Virus record (IMG/VR): IMGVR_UViG_2663762948_000002
Reading direction: 5' to 3' (one strand)
DNA: 12,850 nt
Source: a virus
Taxonomy: Duplodnaviria; Heunggongvirae; Uroviricota; Caudoviricetes
Shown here: positions 4,487 through 11,771 of the stretch, piece after piece
How positions within the stretch are numbered: the first letter of the stretch is position 1
Layout of the letters: every line of letters starts with the position of its first letter
Notes under the pieces: generated by a model
What the model saw: the letters and a program-made list of their open reading frames with translations, nothing else
The model's database searches: none
Told to the model about the DNA's origin: nothing
Made by a program: the position numbers and the translations under genes

Positions 4487-4951
4487 TTACTTTAAACACT
4501 GCTCGGTTATGTATTGCTGAGCACCTTCAAGTTGGGCCTGCATCATTACCAGTCGTTCCCGGAGGGTGAAATAATCCCGTTCAGCGGTGTCTGCCAGTCG
4601 GGGGGAGGCTGCATTATCCACGCCGGAGGCGGTGGTGGCTTCACGCACTGACTGACAGACTGCTTTGATGTGCAACCGACGACGACCAGCGGCAACATCA
4701 TCACGCAGAACATCATTTTCAGCTTTCGCATCAGCTAACTCCTTCGTGTATTTTGCATCGAGCGCAGCAACATCACGCTGACGCATCTGCATGTCAGTAA
4801 TTGCCGCGTTCGCCAGCTTCAGTTCTCTGGCATTTTTGTCGCGCTGTTCTTTGTAGGCGATGGCGTTATCACGGTAATGATTAACACCCCATGACAGGCA
4901 GACGACGATGCAGATAACCAGAGCGGAGATAATCGCGGTTACTCTGTTCAT
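4487..4951 (-). CDS. Rz: Rz-type i-spanin (inner-membrane spanin), 154 aa starting at the ATG at 4949-4951.
   Basis: Near-identical by recall to lambda Rz ([15 protein letters not shown]..., [53 protein letters not shown]); N-terminal TM segment; its ATG overlaps the endolysin TGA stop (ATGA overlap) as in lambda R/Rz. Confidence 0.92.
4546..4731 (-). CDS. Rz1: Rz1-type o-spanin (outer-membrane lipoprotein) embedded in the +1 frame inside Rz.
   Basis: 61-aa ORF entirely within Rz; signal peptide with lipobox VVGC; proline-rich (PPPPP, PPP) mature region; near-identical by recall to lambda Rz1. Confidence 0.9.
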
Positions 4952-5445
4952 TGCTGACCCCACAAACAGATTTCACGCTCAATCTCACGACGAGTCATGA
5001 GACCTTTCCATTGCTTACCGCCAGCATATGTCCAGCGACGTAGCTGATCACATGCGCCTTTGATATCGCCCTGGTTTATTTTGCGAAGAAGCGTCGATGT
5101 TCTGAAATTGCCAGCACCCACGTTGTAAACGAATGAGTAAAGAGCGCCGCGCGTTGTTTCCGGTATATCGACTTTGATGTACGGGTTAATTTGTCTGGCG
5201 ACCGTGGCAAGGTCTTTATTCAAGAGTGTTTTGCATTCTGCTTTGGTATACGTTTTACCGAGCATGATGTCTTTTCCTGTATGCCCGTGACATACAGTCC
5301 ATACACCAACAATATCTTTGTATGGTATGTAGCTGACACCTTCCAGACCATCGTTACCACTTGGGCCAGTGATTAACACTGATGCTATAGCAATTGCTCC
5401 GCCACCAATAGCAGCAGCAACGACTTTTCGTAATGATGGAGGCAT
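4948..5445 (-). CDS. SAR (signal-arrest-release) endolysin, phage lysozyme of the P21 R / E. coli RrrD type.
   Basis: 165 aa; N-terminal Gly/Ala-rich weakly hydrophobic SAR segment ([18 protein letters not shown]) followed by a lysozyme-like domain; by recall nearly identical to the DLP12 lysozyme RrrD; its ATG overlaps the holin stop (TAATG). Confidence 0.9.
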
Positions 5446-5660
5446 TATTCACCTCTCGCAGCCTTGCGCTTATCTTCTTTAATCTTGAAATAAAGGTTTG
5501 TCAGGTACGTCAGCAGGCCAAATACCAGACTACCCAGCACACCGATTGCAGCCCACTGTGACGGAGTTACTCTATCGAGCAACTGTAAAAACCAGTAGCC
5601 AGCACTGCCTGCGGAGGTGCCGTAGGCAATGCCTGTTGAAATTTTGTCCATGGATTTCAT
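5445..5660 (-). CDS. Pinholin (phage 21 S-type class II holin), 71 aa with a dual-start motif (Met1-Lys-Ser-Met4). The ORF extends upstream to 5717 but the supported start is the ATG at 5658-5660.
   Basis: Two TM segments (the first Gly/Ala-rich and SAR-like), charged C-terminus [13 protein letters not shown]; MKSMDK dual start typical of S21 antiholin/holin; strong ribosome-binding site GGAGGTGAGG 4 nt upstream of the ATG at 5660; immediately upstream of the SAR endolysin. Confidence 0.88.
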
Positions 5661-5761
5661 AGCCTCACCTCCGCACGGAACGGATGGCATAGTTATTATG
5701 TGTAGGCTTTCAGACACATCAATCAGAGCCTTAATTGATATATATGCTGGAGACGATGCAA

Positions 5762-5786
5762 TATAAAAAGCTCGCCGTAGCGAGCT
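5762..5786 (-). terminator. Rho-independent terminator between the lipoprotein cassette and the holin gene (minus strand).
   Basis: Perfect 7-bp stem AGCTCGC / GCGAGCT (plus 5769-5775 and 5780-5786) with a 4-nt loop; on the minus strand the stem is followed by TTTTTAT. Confidence 0.6.
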
Positions 5787-5911
5787 AATAAAATGTATTT
5801 CTCTGATATTATGTTTATTTGTATTAGCTCAGACTTGACATCACAGGTTTCGTATATAGAACATCATCAAATCTGTCAGTTTGCTATGAATGAGATATAG
5901 TAATTGAAGAG

Positions 5912-6307
5912 CTAACCTCGCATGTCAAAGCCAGATTTCTGAAAATCTCTGTAGACTTCCGGATTGTTGAAGGCCGGAAATTTGGCTTTATGAGCTGCGG
6001 ACTTTATCGCTTCGCAATAGGCTTTATCACCGTTACTGGTAGATATTTTTAACGCCGTGCCATCCTGAGAGAATTCCATATGCAACCTGCATTTTTTCCC
6101 TTTCCAGTTATGCGGCTCATCAAGTTTGGCATTAATTGCAGCTCTGATTCCCCGCGCTTGCGCCCCCCATTCATCCTGATCATCCCAGCGTCCTGAACTG
6201 CAACTACCTGTAGCAGTAGTTTTGTGGCAATCTGAAGGGTGTAAAGGTGTGCATCCCGCAACAAAACCGACCCAAAAAGTCAACATAACGATTTTCTTTA
6301 ATCCCAC
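5912..6307 (-). CDS. Predicted outer-membrane lipoprotein with a TolA domain III-like C-terminal domain (131 aa, GTG start).
   Basis: Signal peptide MGLKKIVMLTFWVGFVAGC with lipobox VAGC and Thr at +2; GAGGAG ribosome-binding site 6 nt upstream of the GTG; C-terminal roughly 80 aa align with the TolA C-terminal domain as I recall it (GK.C.L ... DG ... C ... AK.P ... P.VY..F) and with the downstream paralog. Confidence 0.75.
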   Translation of the reverse strand: MGLKKIVMLTFWVGFVAGCTPLHPSDCHKTTATGSCSSGRWDDQDEWGAQARGIRAAINAKLDEPHNWKGKKCRLHMEFSQDGTALKISTSNGDKAYCEAIKSAAHKAKFPAFNNPEVYRDFQKSGFDMRG

Positions 6308-6457
6308 TTCTTGCTCCTCAATCCATTAAAATCTCAGCAATAGTAGTTGTTACGTCCGCCACTGGCTCAGAGCTGACTATCCGCTAAATTTAGCTCAGTG
6401 CCGTAGCTGTGTCAGAACAAACCTAAGCCGAAACCGTTTATTACAAAACAATAAATA

Positions 6458-6886
6458 TCAGGGTTTAAAATCCAGCACCCCATTTTGAAATACTTTATAT
6501 ACTTCCGGCGAAGGGGGGGCAGGTATATCAGCATTCTTTATCGCATTCATCGCTTCACGACATAAATCGAGGTCTCCACTTTCTCTTTTAACCTCCAGTA
6601 GAAGGCCATTCGGGGCCATATGCATTCTCAGTGTACACTCTTTTCCTGAATACTTACTCGCATCCCCGAACTGTTTTTCGATGGCGCTCTTGATTTGATG
6701 GGCATACAGACGGATATCCTCACTAACATCAGAAGTACGTTCAGATGAACTCACATACTGTGTCTCTATTGCTTTATCGGAGTAATATGATGTACGGTCA
6801 TGATAATTTGTCGATACAGCATCAGTGCACCCGATAATAATCCCACTAATAATCAACGTAAGAATTGATGCGCTACGAAAACCCAT
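6458..6886 (-). CDS. Predicted outer-membrane lipoprotein with a TolA domain III-like C-terminal domain (142 aa), paralog of 5912-6307.
   Basis: Signal peptide MGFRSASILTLIISGIIIGC with lipobox IIGC and Thr at +2; GAGGA ribosome-binding site upstream of the ATG at 6884-6886; C-terminus (IKSAIEKQFGDASKYSGKECTLRMHMAPNGLLLEVK...DLCREAMNAIKNADIPAPPSPEVYKVFQNGVLDFKP) strongly resembles E. coli TolA domain III, which by recall ends ...KPPSQAVYEVFKNAPLDFKP. Confidence 0.8.
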   Translation of the reverse strand: MGFRSASILTLIISGIIIGCTDAVSTNYHDRTSYYSDKAIETQYVSSSERTSDVSEDIRLYAHQIKSAIEKQFGDASKYSGKECTLRMHMAPNGLLLEVKRESGDLDLCREAMNAIKNADIPAPPSPEVYKVFQNGVLDFKP

Positions 6887-6916
6887 TTTTCCTCACATAT
6901 GTCATATAGTAAAGGA

Positions 6917-6945
6917 TTATATATACCGTTGTTTTGGACGCTCAA
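6917..6945 (-). promoter_or_regulatory. Putative sigma70 promoter for the lipoprotein cassette.
   Basis: On the minus strand: -35 TTGAGC (plus 6940-6945), 17-bp spacer, -10 TATAAT (plus 6917-6922); predicted start about 25 nt upstream of the 6886 ATG. Confidence 0.45.
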
Positions 6946-7477
6946 ACAGCGAATCAGATCAAATAAAACGCACATTTGTTAACATTTACACAAAGTCTGC
7001 GTGGGATATTCTGAAAGAATATCCATAATGTGGAGAGAATCTATTGAAGTGCATGGTGCCGGGTGCCTCCCGGTGAACAAAATGTTCGTGATACCTGTCG
7101 GCGACAGAAAAGGTTAATGGTATCACCCCACCGCACAGGGGGATTCACCATGCAGGAGTTTTCTTAGCAAACTCACTGCGCGCCCGGCAACTCCCAACCA
7201 CATAAAATGCGGAGTTTGTGGTATTTATGCATATAACTCGCAGGAATTATCTTAAAAAACTGATGTCGATCCGGATTAAAAAGAAGCAGGTCATCATCAG
7301 ATGACTGGAAAAAAGGAAAACAAAAAATACTCATCATACAGTTTTGATTGCAGGGATGAGCCTGCTATGCACAATATGCAGAATATAAGCAAGATAAAAA
7401 TATGCAGGCATATTATTTCGGATTTTGTTATTAACACAACCTTTTTAATAATCATTTGGCATACAATAAACCAGCCC

Positions 7478-7503
7478 AAAAAGAACCGCCTAAACAGGCG
7501 GTT
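7478..7503 (-). terminator. Rho-independent terminator (minus strand) between the Q-proximal region and the lipoprotein cassette.
   Basis: Stem AACCGCC / GGCGGTT (plus 7484-7490 and 7497-7503) with a 6-nt loop; on the minus strand it is followed by CTTTTTGGG. Confidence 0.6.
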
Positions 7504-7823
7504 GGTCAATACAAAGGATGCTTCGTCTTTATTATAGTAATCTGAGGCGTCGGGTGTCTTGTATCAGACAACATATTGTCCCGCTAAACAGCGAATTACA
7601 AACCACCCTGCAATGATCTCTCATCTCATTTTATATGAGTTGACGACATCAGGATAACGCATCATCAGCCCCTGCCAAGAAATATCAAAACTCCCGCCAG
7701 CAATGTGTTATCACAATATTGTAAAAAAAACACAGCACCGAAACTATAACTGGTCTCTGTTATAATTTGGAGCAGAAAGACCAGTTGCCCAACTAGCAGC
7801 ATTCTCCCCTGCTTTCCTGACGT

Positions 7824-7850
7824 AAAAAAACCGCATTAAGCGGTTTTTTT
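7824..7850. terminator. Bidirectional intrinsic terminator about 80 nt downstream of the putative Q gene; candidate tR'-like terminator of the late leader.
   Basis: Perfect palindromic hairpin AAAAAAACCGC-ATTAA-GCGGTTTTTTT: a GC core flanked by an A7 and a T7 run, so a U-tract follows the stem on either strand. Confidence 0.65.
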
Positions 7851-7930
7851 ACGATGTCCATGTCTGCAATCCGCCTCGCGATACAGCTTTGCGAAGCATA
7901 GCAAAATTGAAGCAGTTTATACGTAAGAAA

Positions 7931-8473
7931 TCAAGCCATTTTCTCAGCAAATGATTCACGCATGGGAATATATAGGGCATACTCAGCAACAGCTAACCAA
8001 TTAGCAATCCGTTTTTCGCATGTGCTAAAACACCACTCTGGGTGTGCATCATTTAGCAATTCAGCCATTTTGCGCTTAGTCATCCCCCGCCCTTCATAGC
8101 GTTGCCGGAGAATGCAAATCAATCCTGGATGCTCTGCCAGCACCTCACTTATGACTCGATCAATACATAACGCCTCTGCATCAGTACAATGCGCCAGCCA
8201 GCTCTTTTGCTTGCCGTTGATCATCTCTCGCAAAAACGCTTCCAGCTCAGCTTTCTCTATTCCCGCTTTTTTCATTCTGCGCAGGGCTTCATTAATGGCT
8301 GTTTTCGTCAGTTTTTTGGATGCCAACAACTGATTGAACATATTCCCTGACCTGCCACCGCCAATATACGACCAGCGCCCCCACATACGTAGTTTTCCCT
8401 GAATCCAGACACTTTCCAGCGTGGTGAGGCGAAGGTGTTCTCCGCTTTTTCCTGTATTCGTTGGGTAAATCAT
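7931..8473 (-). CDS. Putative late-gene antiterminator Q (Q21/Q82-like family), 180 aa.
   Basis: Occupies the Q slot, last gene of the nin-type operon and immediately upstream of terminators and the lysis cassette; start overlaps the stop of the upstream YbcO-like gene; N-terminal W..WGRW motif and a C-terminal helix-turn-helix-like segment resemble non-lambda Q proteins. Family assignment is from memory, not a search. Confidence 0.55.
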   Translation of the reverse strand: MIYPTNTGKSGEHLRLTTLESVWIQGKLRMWGRWSYIGGGRSGNMFNQLLASKKLTKTAINEALRRMKKAGIEKAELEAFLREMINGKQKSWLAHCTDAEALCIDRVISEVLAEHPGLICILRQRYEGRGMTKRKMAELLNDAHPEWCFSTCEKRIANWLAVAEYALYIPMRESFAEKMA

Positions 8474-8760
8474 AAATGACCTTTCTTTCTCCAGATTTCT
8501 TGTGTGCGAAAAACCCCTTCAGCATGCATCAGGCGCAATTCTTCTTTGGTGTAATCGCTGGTTTTTACCCGCCCGTCGATTAGATCGTGGCATGAGCTAC
8601 AGGCTATCGCCGCCTGCATATCGTGTGGTTTTGTCGCTGTTCCGCACGTCCCCGCCAGCCTGTAATGCGCCAGCACAGAGGTTTCGGGATTGTGATTGCA
8701 GTAGCCAGGGATTCTGATCTGGCACATCTGGCCTTTAGCCGCTTTACGTAAATTCACCAT
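8470..8760 (-). CDS. YbcO-like nin-region protein (Cys-rich putative nuclease), 96 aa.
   Basis: Aligns by recall with E. coli DLP12 YbcO (LRKAA.G..CQ.RIPG.CN.NPETSVLAH.RL.G.CGT.TKP.D...IACS.CHD.ID.R); conserved Cys/His pattern; translationally coupled to its neighbours on both sides. Confidence 0.7.
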   Translation of the reverse strand: MVNLRKAAKGQMCQIRIPGYCNHNPETSVLAHYRLAGTCGTATKPHDMQAAIACSSCHDLIDGRVKTSDYTKEELRLMHAEGVFRTQEIWRKKGHL

Positions 8761-9359
8761 TACGCAAACTCCAGTAGTTGTGCGGCCACATTTTCAACTT
8801 CCTCATGAGAGGAGAATTTACGAAACAGAATCCAGTTCCACAGCACATTCAGTACAGATTTATAAACCTGCTGAAACTCGACTTCGTCCATATTCGCAAA
8901 AGCGATGGATTTTGCCCGACGCCCACGGCTACCGTCCGGATAAATATGCTCGGTGTAAAATCCGGCCTGAATGGTTACCCACTCGCGGAAAGCCTCAAAC
9001 GACTTTAGCAACGCCGTATCCCGGGTTCTACGAGTCGCAACGGTGTTAAGGTATTGCTCTGCGGCATCACTCAGGGCTGGCGTGTGTTCCCGACCAACTG
9101 ATTCGCACAGGTAATCAACGAAACCAGACAGCAGTTCTCGTTCGCGAGGCGTGATCGCCCCACCGACCGGAGTCCAGTAATCGAATCCCAGTTGCAGGAG
9201 TTTGAAAAAACGCTTGTGGAATGCGTAGTTACGCACACGCTTAAAGTCTGCGTGTATCCACTCACCTATTTTGATTTGATGCAGAAAATCGCAACTCTCC
9301 GGCGTCGCCGGGAGAAGTAAACCAGAAGAAGTTTGTTTGACCAGTTGTATATGCGCCAT
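8760..9359 (-). CDS. Lambdoid nin-region protein of unknown function (199 aa); possibly the DUF1367-type family, unverified.
   Basis: Intact 199-aa ORF with its stop overlapping the YbcO-like start; position upstream of YbcO/Q as in nin regions; no motif I can assign with confidence. Confidence 0.55.
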   Translation of the reverse strand: MAHIQLVKQTSSGLLLPATPESCDFLHQIKIGEWIHADFKRVRNYAFHKRFFKLLQLGFDYWTPVGGAITPRERELLSGFVDYLCESVGREHTPALSDAAEQYLNTVATRRTRDTALLKSFEAFREWVTIQAGFYTEHIYPDGSRGRRAKSIAFANMDEVEFQQVYKSVLNVLWNWILFRKFSSHEEVENVAAQLLEFA

Positions 9360-9417
9360 TTCTCAATCTCTCGATGGCGCAGCGCAGCAGATGCCAGTTG
9401 TTCAGGCTGACGAATAA

Positions 9418-9445
9418 AGTATAAATAAACTGGCTATGGTGTAAA
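9418..9445 (-). promoter_or_regulatory. Possible sigma70 promoter upstream of the nin-Q operon.
   Basis: On the minus strand: -35 TTTACA (plus 9440-9445), 16-bp spacer, -10 TATACT (plus 9418-9423), about 60-75 nt upstream of the 9359 ATG. Confidence 0.3.
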
Positions 9446-9639
9446 GCCCCACATAGCATGAACAAACACTACATATCAAATAGCTGGTACAAGGATAGAA
9501 ATACGACATTTATTATTAAAAACGATTAGATAAATTACATTTTAATGTTATGCAAAAGTTCTTTTTTATCATAACATTTCAATAAAAGCATTACAGATGC
9601 AATCATCCCGTCATCATCAATTATTTAAGGTGGTTAAAC

Positions 9640-9726
9640 ATGGAAAATAACAAGTTCGCACATCTCGCTCCTTTTTTATCCGTAATCCTTTTCGCTTGTT
9701 GTTTTATATGGGCATTATTTTTATAA
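9640..9726 (+). CDS. Candidate small hydrophobic protein (28 aa, MENNKFAHLAPFLSVILFACCFIWALFL); possible small membrane protein or type I toxin-like peptide.
   Basis: ATG at 9640 preceded by ribosome-binding site AAGGTGG (9628-9634, 5-nt spacer); a single predicted TM helix; lies in an otherwise ORF-free AT-rich region. Too short for statistical support. Confidence 0.3.
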   Translation: MENNKFAHLAPFLSVILFACCFIWALFL

Positions 9727-10117
9727 AGTAGCCACATGATAAGTTGCTGGAATCATATTTCCCACTCAAGTCATTAACATTTGATAAGATATATCTAAAA
9801 GGACGCCTTTACATTATTTATGTGTATATAATTTATTTATATACACAGTAAAGGTATCCTGGGAAAATATTTATCGTTAAAAAATACATCATAAATAATC
9901 AAGCTGAAATTTCAGAACACAACTAATACACACAATAAGGTTCAGTAACAATAATCTATGTGGACTACATCGAGATTTTTTGATTAAACTTTAATAACTT
10001 ATTCCTAACACACAGAATGCATAAACTAAAAGTAAAACAAATAGTTATACGAAAAACAACCATATTTATTATATCTTCTCCTCTAATCAACATATCAATT
10101 ATGTGTTTCATAACAGC

Positions 10118-10157
10118 TTGACATAACCCTCAAAAACACGCATTTATAATGCATGTT
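10118..10157 (+). promoter_or_regulatory. Promoter of the yeaR-like gene with an overlapping NsrR-type operator (11-1-11 inverted repeat).
   Basis: AACACGCATTT-A-TAATGCATGTT at 10135-10157 closely matches the NsrR consensus as I recall it; TATAAT at 10145-10150 lies inside the operator; TTGACA at 10118-10123, although the 21-bp spacing to that -10 is non-canonical. Confidence 0.5.
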
Positions 10158-11234: not shown

Positions 11235-11771
11235 ATGCCATTTGTTATTTATGTGTTTACTATCAGTGCCTTTGCGCTCGGACTCGCGGAATTTGTCCCC
11301 ATTGGGCTGACAGACGTTATGGCTCAGGGGTTGTGTGTGGGTGTGGAGCAGACCGGGGCAGCGGTTACAACCTATGCACTGGGGGCAACGTTCGCGGCAC
11401 CCGTACTGTCTGCGCTGACAGCAAGCTGGAGCCGGAAAAATGTAATGCTTACAACTGCCGTTGTGTTTACTGCCGGTAGTCTGGCGGCCGCGTTTGCAGC
11501 CACATTACCTCAGCTCCTGTTAGCGCGGTTCATTGCTGGTCTGGGACACGGCCTGTTTCTGGCTGCGGCATCCAGTACCGCAGCTCGTCTTGCTGGACCG
11601 GGTAAAGCAGGCAGAGCGGTGGCTGTGGTATTTGGTGGCTTTACTCTGGCGATGGCAATCGGCGTACCGCTGAGTACATGGTTGCCCGTGGAGACATTGG
11701 CACGAATGCAGATTATGTATGGAAACTGCAGGCCACTCTGGGTGCGTTGGGAATACGGAATGATTACGTGA
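11235..11771 (+). pseudogene. Truncated MFS-family transporter gene (N-terminal roughly 155 aa of an expected roughly 400 aa protein).
   Basis: ATG at 11235 with AGGAG ribosome-binding site; N-terminal half resembles MFS transporters (about 5 TM helices, loop motif LTASWSRKN); the reading frame ends after a non-MFS-like tail, only 67 nt before the next gene, with no continuation in another frame. Confidence 0.6.

Follow-up and report, generated by a model that had tools for sequence, protein, structure and literature searches.

Two TolA domain III lipoprotein genes as cargo between the Q-like and holin genes of a defective lambdoid prophage

The stretch of DNA considered here (IMG/VR record IMGVR_UViG_2663762948_000002), referred to as the window, is 12,850 nt long and carries part of a lambdoid prophage. 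Between a Q-like late antiterminator gene and an S21-type holin gene it contains two small genes, gene 1 and gene 2, whose products are lipoproteins with the third domain of TolA. The segment that holds them (7050-5688) is cargo of the moron type. It occupies the variable gap from Q to the holin gene, and the defective lambdoid prophage as a whole is located at the Rac site. Coordinates are window positions and all named features lie on the minus strand. The features on which the argument depends are the following:

7931-8473, minus strand, Q-like late antiterminator gene, 180 aa, DUF1133 (Pfam DUF1133 with 356 bits and a weak Phage_antitermQ match; PHROG 753, 'anti-termination protein Q-like')
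From the Q-like gene to gene 1, about 1 kb of non-coding DNA
7821-7853, minus strand, hairpin terminator about 80 nt past the stop codon of the Q-like gene (-19.7 kcal/mol, z = -5.8)
7484-7560, minus strand, promoter-like site AAGACA, 18 nt, TATAAT (7560-7531), followed 20 nt later by a terminator (7503-7484)
6997-7183, minus strand, STnc100/PasD-family prophage small RNA (sRNA) element (full-length match to Rfam RF02076, model positions 1-206; 86.6 bits, gathering score 47)
6960-7002, minus strand, weak hairpin followed by UUUUAUUU (-9.3 kcal/mol, z = -1.6), not called by the terminator scan
6916-6945, minus strand, sigma-70 promoter-like site TTGAGC, 18 nt, TATAAT (10 of 12 consensus positions)
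6458-6886, minus strand, gene 1, TolA domain III lipoprotein, 142 aa
5912-6307, minus strand, gene 2, TolA domain III lipoprotein, 131 aa
5762-5786, minus strand, intrinsic terminator between gene 2 and the holin gene (7-bp GC-rich stem at 5786-5769, UACG loop, TTTTTAT)
5445-5660, minus strand, S21-type holin gene, 71 aa from the ATG at 5660 (Pfam Phage_holin_2_1, 119.9 bits)

Both proteins match the Pfam TolA C-terminal domain (PF06519; 82.6 bits for gene 1 and 54.6 bits for gene 2 at a cut-off of 25), and TolA and TonB_2 are the only Pfam matches of either. Residues 55-142 of the gene 1 product share 52 of 88 positions (59%) with residues 334-421 of Escherichia coli TolA, including the C-terminal LDFKP, while the two products are 29% identical to each other. 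In AlphaFold2 (AF2) models the gene 1 domain, with a predicted local distance difference test (pLDDT) value of about 90, superimposes on chain 2X9A_B, TolA III in complex with the g3p of phage IF1, with a TM-score of 0.96 and a root-mean-square deviation (rmsd) of 0.6 Å. The gene 2 domain (pLDDT above 90) likewise superimposes on 3QDP, a TolA III structure from a colicin study, with a TM-score of 0.92 and an rmsd of 1.1 Å. The N-terminal 25-50 residues of both proteins are predicted to be disordered, and each protein has a disordered linker of 25-35 residues before the TolA domain. Predicted lipoboxes of the PROSITE type (PS51257) are IIGC with Cys20 in gene 1 and VAGC with Cys19 in gene 2, each with Thr at position +2. 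The +2 rule of lipoprotein sorting is well established, and the Thr in both proteins therefore predicts sorting to the outer membrane. Among 24 family members there is no variation at the lipobox cysteine or at the two cysteines of the disulfide. Ribosome-binding sites are present before both genes (GAGGA at 6894-6890, 3 nt before the ATG at 6886; GAGGAG at 6319-6314, 6 nt before the GTG at 6307). For gene 2 the homologues confirm the GTG start: the same codon is ATG in those on plasmids and GTG in those of Enterobacter and Serratia.

With TolA domain III of the Tol-Pal system the two proteins share the fold, the Pfam family and the disulfide pair, and gene 1 in addition the beta-3 strand LDFKP. 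Unlike TolA they have no transmembrane anchor and no helical domain II, but a lipoprotein signal peptide and a short linker instead. They are no orthologues of TolA. Against the full-length model NF007065 (full-length TolA is modelled by NF007065/TIGR02794) they score 107.8 and 53.7 bits, both below the cut-off of 213 bits, and the match is limited to the last 80-95 or so model positions. With anchor and domain II replaced, TolQR cannot energise the domain, whose expected location is the outer membrane.

In RefSeq the Prokaryotic Genome Annotation Pipeline (PGAP) often labels the intact gene 1 as a partial tolA pseudogene, 'incomplete; missing N-terminus', and starts gene 2 from an internal ATG (L002 9883-10143; L006 1761-2021), and as it truncates the one and starts the other internally, the lipoprotein signal peptides are hidden. 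The label implies that the open reading frames (ORFs) are decaying, functionless fragments of tolA, which would also agree with scores below the full-length TolA cut-off. However, both ORFs are intact, each with a start codon, a ribosome-binding site and a lipoprotein signal peptide of its own, and their ratios of nonsynonymous to synonymous substitution rates (dN/dS) range from 0.08 to 0.39 (0.26-0.39 in the gene 1 family, 0.08-0.16 in the gene 2 family across genera). The lipobox and disulfide cysteines do not vary, the folds are predicted with confidence by AF2, and among 80 viral contigs both genes are intact in every contig that reaches them. Both proteins moreover belong to a dedicated phage family, PHROG 5772, filed as function unknown. 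Decay is refuted by these observations and we give it practically no chance; the pseudogene label of gene 1 is an artefact. The gene 2 family is, by its dN/dS values, under strong purifying selection.

The borders of the cargo segment are evident from its distribution. Records with the cassette at 99% identity or more number about 790 from 5426 complete E. coli genomes, and GenBank has one phage, mEp460_ev081, that contains it. From 7077 downward no cassette copy, whether from an E. coli genome or a viral contig, falls below 99% identity. In a second genomic context, with another Q gene and tRNA genes, homology begins exactly at 7077, inside the core of the STnc100 element, and the remaining STnc100 copies diverge at about 7050. 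On the right, cassette-free prophages match only from 5687/5675 onward, 15-27 nt before the holin ATG, which places the terminator at 5786-5762 within cassette-specific DNA. The cassette-specific DNA extends over about 7050-5688, promoter-like site and terminator included. A cassette-free prophage sharing the Q-proximal DNA was sought at megablast level, and none was found for this Q type. Each of the 80 viral contigs examined has the cassette linked to the S21 holin gene; the endolysin gene is variable. The G+C content (GC) is 0.37-0.47 across 5650-7000 versus 0.43-0.53 in the lysis and nin/Q genes, a modest drop.

The same gap holds the porin gene nmpC in DLP12, and tRNAs, a TolA-like gene and an esterase gene in Stx-like prophages. 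Like other cargo of the Q-to-S gap (stx1/stx2 in Stx phages, nmpC in DLP12), the cassette consists of extra genes between late-regulation and lysis genes that are adjacent elsewhere, and with such cargo and the bor and lom morons of lambda it shares a terminator of its own, a candidate promoter, a slightly lower GC and an envelope-protein product. The parallel to Stx prophages is closest for the gene 1 family, which occurs there exactly in the stx slot after tRNA genes. The cassette differs from these systems in that its promoter candidate is not conserved between alleles, its two genes have separate histories and its left junction lies inside an sRNA repeat.

A first-pass annotation of the window had described the two genes as a lipoprotein pair forming an insulated moron cassette with its own promoter, ribosome-binding sites and terminator. 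Part of this is borne out: both genes encode predicted lipoproteins and have GAGGA-type ribosome-binding sites, the terminator after gene 2 is strong, and the mosaic junctions (7077/7050 and about 5688/5675) in the variable gap together with the lower GC agree with moron-type cargo. It overlooked the TolA III identity of both proteins and the STnc100 element at 7183-6997, and its treatment of the pair as one unit does not hold, as gene 1 occurs without gene 2 in L097 and L005, and plasmids and chromosomes carry members of the gene 2 family by themselves.

The cassette is thus a composite of two separately acquired genes and no obligate pair. The L097 allele is 94% identical at the DNA level over 7263-6457 and has the same Q type, but carries gene 1 without gene 2, followed by more STnc100 copies. 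A lone gene whose product shares about 66% identity with that of gene 1 follows the tRNA genes of L005, L101 and L102, at the place of stx in Stx phages. In L105-L107 recombination has taken place inside gene 1: the upstream DNA and the 5' half of the gene belong to the L005 type, and everything that follows, with gene 2, terminator and holin gene, is the same as in the window. About 600 MPF_I/MOBP plasmids (IncI-type, conjugative) carry, behind a nikB-type relaxase gene, a gene to which gene 2 together with just 30 nt of its leader is 88% identical, and this plasmid gene is also present in a pO157 remnant. The prophage, plasmid and chromosomal copies share conserved DNA over about 45 nt ahead of the gene 2 start codon. 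Enterobacter chromosomes contain lone relatives of gene 2 at 80-86% identity. This distribution over plasmids, chromosomes and prophages would fit a self-contained protective gene.

Two further occurrences of the family were seen. On a Serratia marcescens chromosome (L012 5001-7736) a lone gene 2 homologue adjoins a GmrSD-type restriction gene and a HEPN gene, a neighbourhood that looks like a defence island. Klebsiella IncFII plasmids (L108 4217-5246) carry a third lineage of TolA III lipoproteins, with the lipobox ITAC and the C-terminus ALDFRL, directly after a gene for a secreted thioredoxin-fold (DsbC-like) protein on conjugative F-type plasmids; about 300 Klebsiella plasmids match.

The left junction coincides with a known repeat. 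STnc100, related to PasD, recurs in the late regions of lambdoid and Stx phages (bioRxiv 10.64898/2026.05.13.724894) and is located 75 nt downstream of stx2 in Stx2 phages (PMC12370729). The copy in the window resembles these sRNAs in its full-length match and in its position beside late-region cargo, as in Stx phages. In an alignment with six other copies the conserved core CACCGGGAGGCACCCGGCACCATGC (7077-7051) is kept in the cassette-bearing copies, and we interpret this core as the left recombination junction of the cassette. By contrast, the GC-rich terminal hairpin of the family and its U-run are absent; in their place the cassette-bearing copies have GGAUAUUCUUUCAGAAUAUCC, an AU-rich hairpin without a U-run. 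Spread of the cassette would accordingly proceed by recombination between the STnc100/PasD-family core on the left and the holin/lysis region on the right. In the late region of the Stx-like prophage L005 (5468-8418), five STnc100 copies stand in tandem or near-tandem and flank TolA-like and esterase genes. Their arrangement around cargo suggests that the repeats act as seams for cargo exchange.

The promoter-like site before gene 1 consists of TTGAGC (6945-6940) and TATAAT (6921-6916), the latter ending 29 nt before the ATG at 6886. Its perfect -10, the TTG in the -35, the 18-nt spacing and the preceding T-run make what we take to be a plausible promoter of weak to moderate strength. The T-run UUUUAUUU could serve as an UP-like element, and the site may work in the present allele. 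The hexamers, with 10 of 12 matches, are those which the first-pass annotation had put forward as the cassette's own promoter, although it gave a spacer of 17 nt and a distance to the gene of about 25 nt. In some genomes the insertion sequence IS1 is inserted at 6928, exactly between -35 and -10. A supposed junction inside the promoter in L085 was rejected, as it is this insertion.

Several observations count against the site as the source of transcription, well placed as it is. In the whole window four sites with at least 10 of 12 matches are observed and 3.9 are expected from dinucleotide shuffles, and 7.6% of shuffles of the 164-nt upstream region give an equally good match. Conservation is uninformative, because the approximately 790 copies are all at least 99% identical. 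The 94% identical L097 allele keeps TTGAGC, but its -10 reads TGTAAT and has lost the critical A at -11. The upstream DNA of the L005/L105 allele is unrelated, and the scan gave no good promoter near the gene there. Being altered in L097 and absent in L005/L105, the promoter-like site is no conserved part of the unit. Finally, the location of the cassette in the late operon fits a role in the lytic cycle equally well.

It is therefore to be considered that the promoter match arose by chance in AT-rich DNA and that the genes are late-operon cargo only, transcribed under Q and with a lytic role, which could be a weakening of Tol-Pal for outer-membrane rupture or vesicle release, or the exclusion of competitors from the infected cell. 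The cassette follows the Q/tR' region, precedes the holin gene and shares their strand, its promoter is neither above chance nor conserved, and the L005-type allele occupies the stx slot without a recognisable promoter. In that slot stx2 depends mainly on late transcription. Defects in Tol are further known to cause hypervesiculation (PMC11032300). On the other hand, close relatives of gene 2 are found on conjugative plasmids and alone in chromosomes, under strong purifying selection, and their presence outside any phage implies that the protein needs no lytic context. A terminator before the holin gene is useful only if Q-independent transcripts exist, and although this defective prophage has lost everything upstream of the nin region, the cassette is intact wherever it was seen. 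We regard an exclusively lytic cargo as rather unlikely.

The terminator before the holin gene is convincing as a prediction (5786-5769, -13 kcal/mol, z = -4.4; none of 200 shuffles folds as well). In the 150-nt spacer between gene 1 and gene 2 no hairpin, terminator or significant structure was found, which makes their co-transcription plausible, and a search of the same spacer for a gene 2 promoter gave no convincing hexamer pair common to the copies. Upstream, the hairpin at 7853-7821 is probably the real tR' of the late promoter, for which it is the best candidate in the sequence; in L097 another hairpin terminator takes the corresponding place past Q. An isrK-like match at 7897-7824 scores 21.6 bits, far below the threshold of 50. 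The promoter-like site and terminator at 7560-7484 would together yield an RNA of about 45 nt. This region is 85% conserved in L097, where it follows four tRNA genes.

The second, upstream terminator of the first-pass annotation is present at 7503-7484, but with z = -1.3 is on its own not above shuffles, and the stronger hairpin at 7853-7821 had been missed. Towards the holin gene a strong terminator closes off the cargo. On the other side the insulation is leakier than proposed, since an sRNA element with a weak substitute terminator intervenes between the upstream terminators and the promoter-like site. The sequence features give no proof of an insulated unit with a promoter of its own and contradict that claim in part, while the individual features and the status as cargo are sound.

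The sRNA element itself raises a further possibility, namely that expression in the lysogen occurs mainly as a 3' extension of the STnc100/PasD-family transcript and that TTGAGC/TATAAT is not the main start. The GC-rich terminator of other STnc100 copies folds with -17.3 kcal/mol, compared to -9.3 kcal/mol for the weak hairpin and U-run that, with the AU-rich hairpin, replace it in cassette-bearing copies, and the hairpin at 7002-6960 is possibly a leaky end of the sRNA element. Between the window and L097 the element is 97.3% conserved and gene 1 93.4%. STnc100 copies bind RpoD in Salmonella, and they are transcribed in uninduced cultures of enterohaemorrhagic E. coli, one copy being confirmed by Northern blot (PMC5331693). 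However, a promoter and start site of the family could not be located from the alignment, the copy in the window departs from the consensus upstream (TTGGGA versus TTGACA/TTGATG in other copies), and its Rfam score is the lowest but one among the copies examined. Moreover, the weak hairpin and U-run may still terminate. As the principal route of expression such read-through appears quite improbable to us.

We prefer a reading in which several routes of transcription serve the same cargo. Since the cassette lies inside the late operon, Q-dependent expression is to be expected in any case, and in lytic growth Q-modified polymerase would read through the cassette. Without Q, any expression would have to come from the TTGAGC-18-TATAAT site at 6945-6916 or from read-through of the upstream sRNA element, and the terminator at 5786-5762 would keep such Q-independent transcripts out of the holin gene. 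Joined with the decoy function proposed below, cargo segment and transcription by Q and from its own site or the sRNA element form the best single explanation that we can offer, the chances of which we judge to be evenly balanced.

The proposed function follows from the ligands of the domain. The beta-3 strand of TolA III (A415-K420) binds g3p N1, colicin N (Kd of about 1 uM) and TolB (about 40 uM) by strand addition, and colicin A binds the opposite edge of the sheet (PMC4339652; PMC7391070). IF1, a phage of the IncI pilus, uses TolA III (PDB 2X9A). When g3p N1 is present in the periplasm it sequesters TolA; the cells become resistant to colicin A, and phage uptake falls by 4 logs (PMC10424213). 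We tentatively suggest that the TolA III lipoproteins of prophages, IncI/IncF plasmids and islands may be periplasmic co-receptor decoys against g3p and group A colicins, a suggestion that we think somewhat more apt to fail than to hold. Tethered to the outer membrane at its inner face, both proteins would expose the TolA surface, especially the C-terminal beta-3 strand, that is bound by the g3p N1 of filamentous phages, the translocation domains of group A colicins and the N-terminus of TolB. TolA-dependent invaders would be trapped there before they reach the energised TolA of the inner membrane. Because TolA III at the outer membrane cannot be energised, incoming ligands should be bound unproductively, and because the affinity for TolB is about 40-fold weaker, damage to Tol-Pal would be limited at low dose; at high dose Tol-Pal function would be weakened too. 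Levengood-Freyermuth and co-workers reportedly observed in 1993 that export of TolA III to the periplasm renders cells colicin-tolerant and leaky. Carriage by plasmids that encode pili would fit protection from pilus-specific filamentous phages such as IF1.

Three points speak against decoys. The C-terminal beta-3 strand of gene 2 reads FDMRG versus LDFKP in TolA, a TolA III tethered to the outer membrane could harm the cell by titrating TolB, and literature searches for a TolA-like prophage or plasmid lipoprotein, decoy or mimic returned nothing relevant. A comparison of the proteins with PADLOC gave no family match at E = 0.1 or better.

Known protective proteins offer partial parallels to the proposed decoys. 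Llp of T5, Cor of phi80, N15 and mEp phages and TraT of F are likewise small outer-membrane lipoproteins of phages or plasmids that protect their carrier from phages, colicins or DNA. They block an outer-membrane receptor (FhuA, OmpA), whereas here a periplasmic co-receptor would be imitated, and there is no sequence similarity. In the immunity conferred by Ff g3p the same interface between g3p N1 and TolA III shuts Tol entry, with colicin tolerance and phage resistance as the result (PMC10424213). There, however, the ligand of the invader saturates the host receptor, while in the present case a spare receptor domain would soak up the ligand.

The architecture of the cassette is ordinary, as cargo in the Q-to-holin gap is textbook; the payload is the part of interest. 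The family is uncharacterised and widespread: about 15% of complete E. coli genomes have it, as do hundreds of IncI-type plasmids, pO157 included, and other enterobacteria. The host domain of which it is a copy is precisely the one required by group A colicins and filamentous phages to enter cells. The hypothesis for the family is clear and testable. If the proteins are decoys, they would represent a new and easily testable way in which mobile elements shield their hosts, and would help to explain differences between strains in colicin and phage sensitivity. Exclusion would then operate by receptor mimicry instead of receptor masking, of which our literature searches found no description, and plasmids would shield their host from phages that exploit the plasmid's own pilus. 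The case likewise presents STnc100-type sRNA repeats as seams for the exchange of late-region cargo.

The genes around the cassette are listed below; the nearest gene upstream is the Q-like one, by which the late operon is defined:

8760-9359, minus strand, NinB-like gene
8470-8760, minus strand, DUF1364 gene
4948-5445, minus strand, lysozyme gene
4487-4963, minus strand, Rz gene
Beyond Rz/Rz1 in gene order, trkG, a ParB-like gene and terminase genes

An ORF for an Rz1-type lipoprotein (4546-4731, minus strand; lipobox VVGC, proline-rich) is embedded out of frame within Rz. The lysis cassette of this defective prophage appears intact. In strain L6-21 (NZ_CP123963), like EC93 a carrier of the cassette, a nearly identical region is located at the Rac site and adjoins pinR, uspF and ompN. 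It has neither immunity nor replication genes, which makes the prophage defective.

The cassette has also been a target of insertion. Besides the IS1 insertions at 6928, in another genome IS3 is inserted between gene 2 and the terminator; the IS1 and IS3 cases were seen at L085 1-100, H2 and L006 2682-3910. H109, a candidate for the terminator joined to other cargo, was rejected, since it represents the cassette interrupted by IS3.

No tRNA genes were found within the window. At 11683/11684 about 1.3 kb present in L002 is missing, and an ORF for a transporter of the major facilitator superfamily is truncated. The DNA at 9400-10150, between the NinB-like gene and a chromosomal DUF1971-like gene, is AT-rich (GC 27-32%), and the sister genome L002 has hokD/sok at this place.

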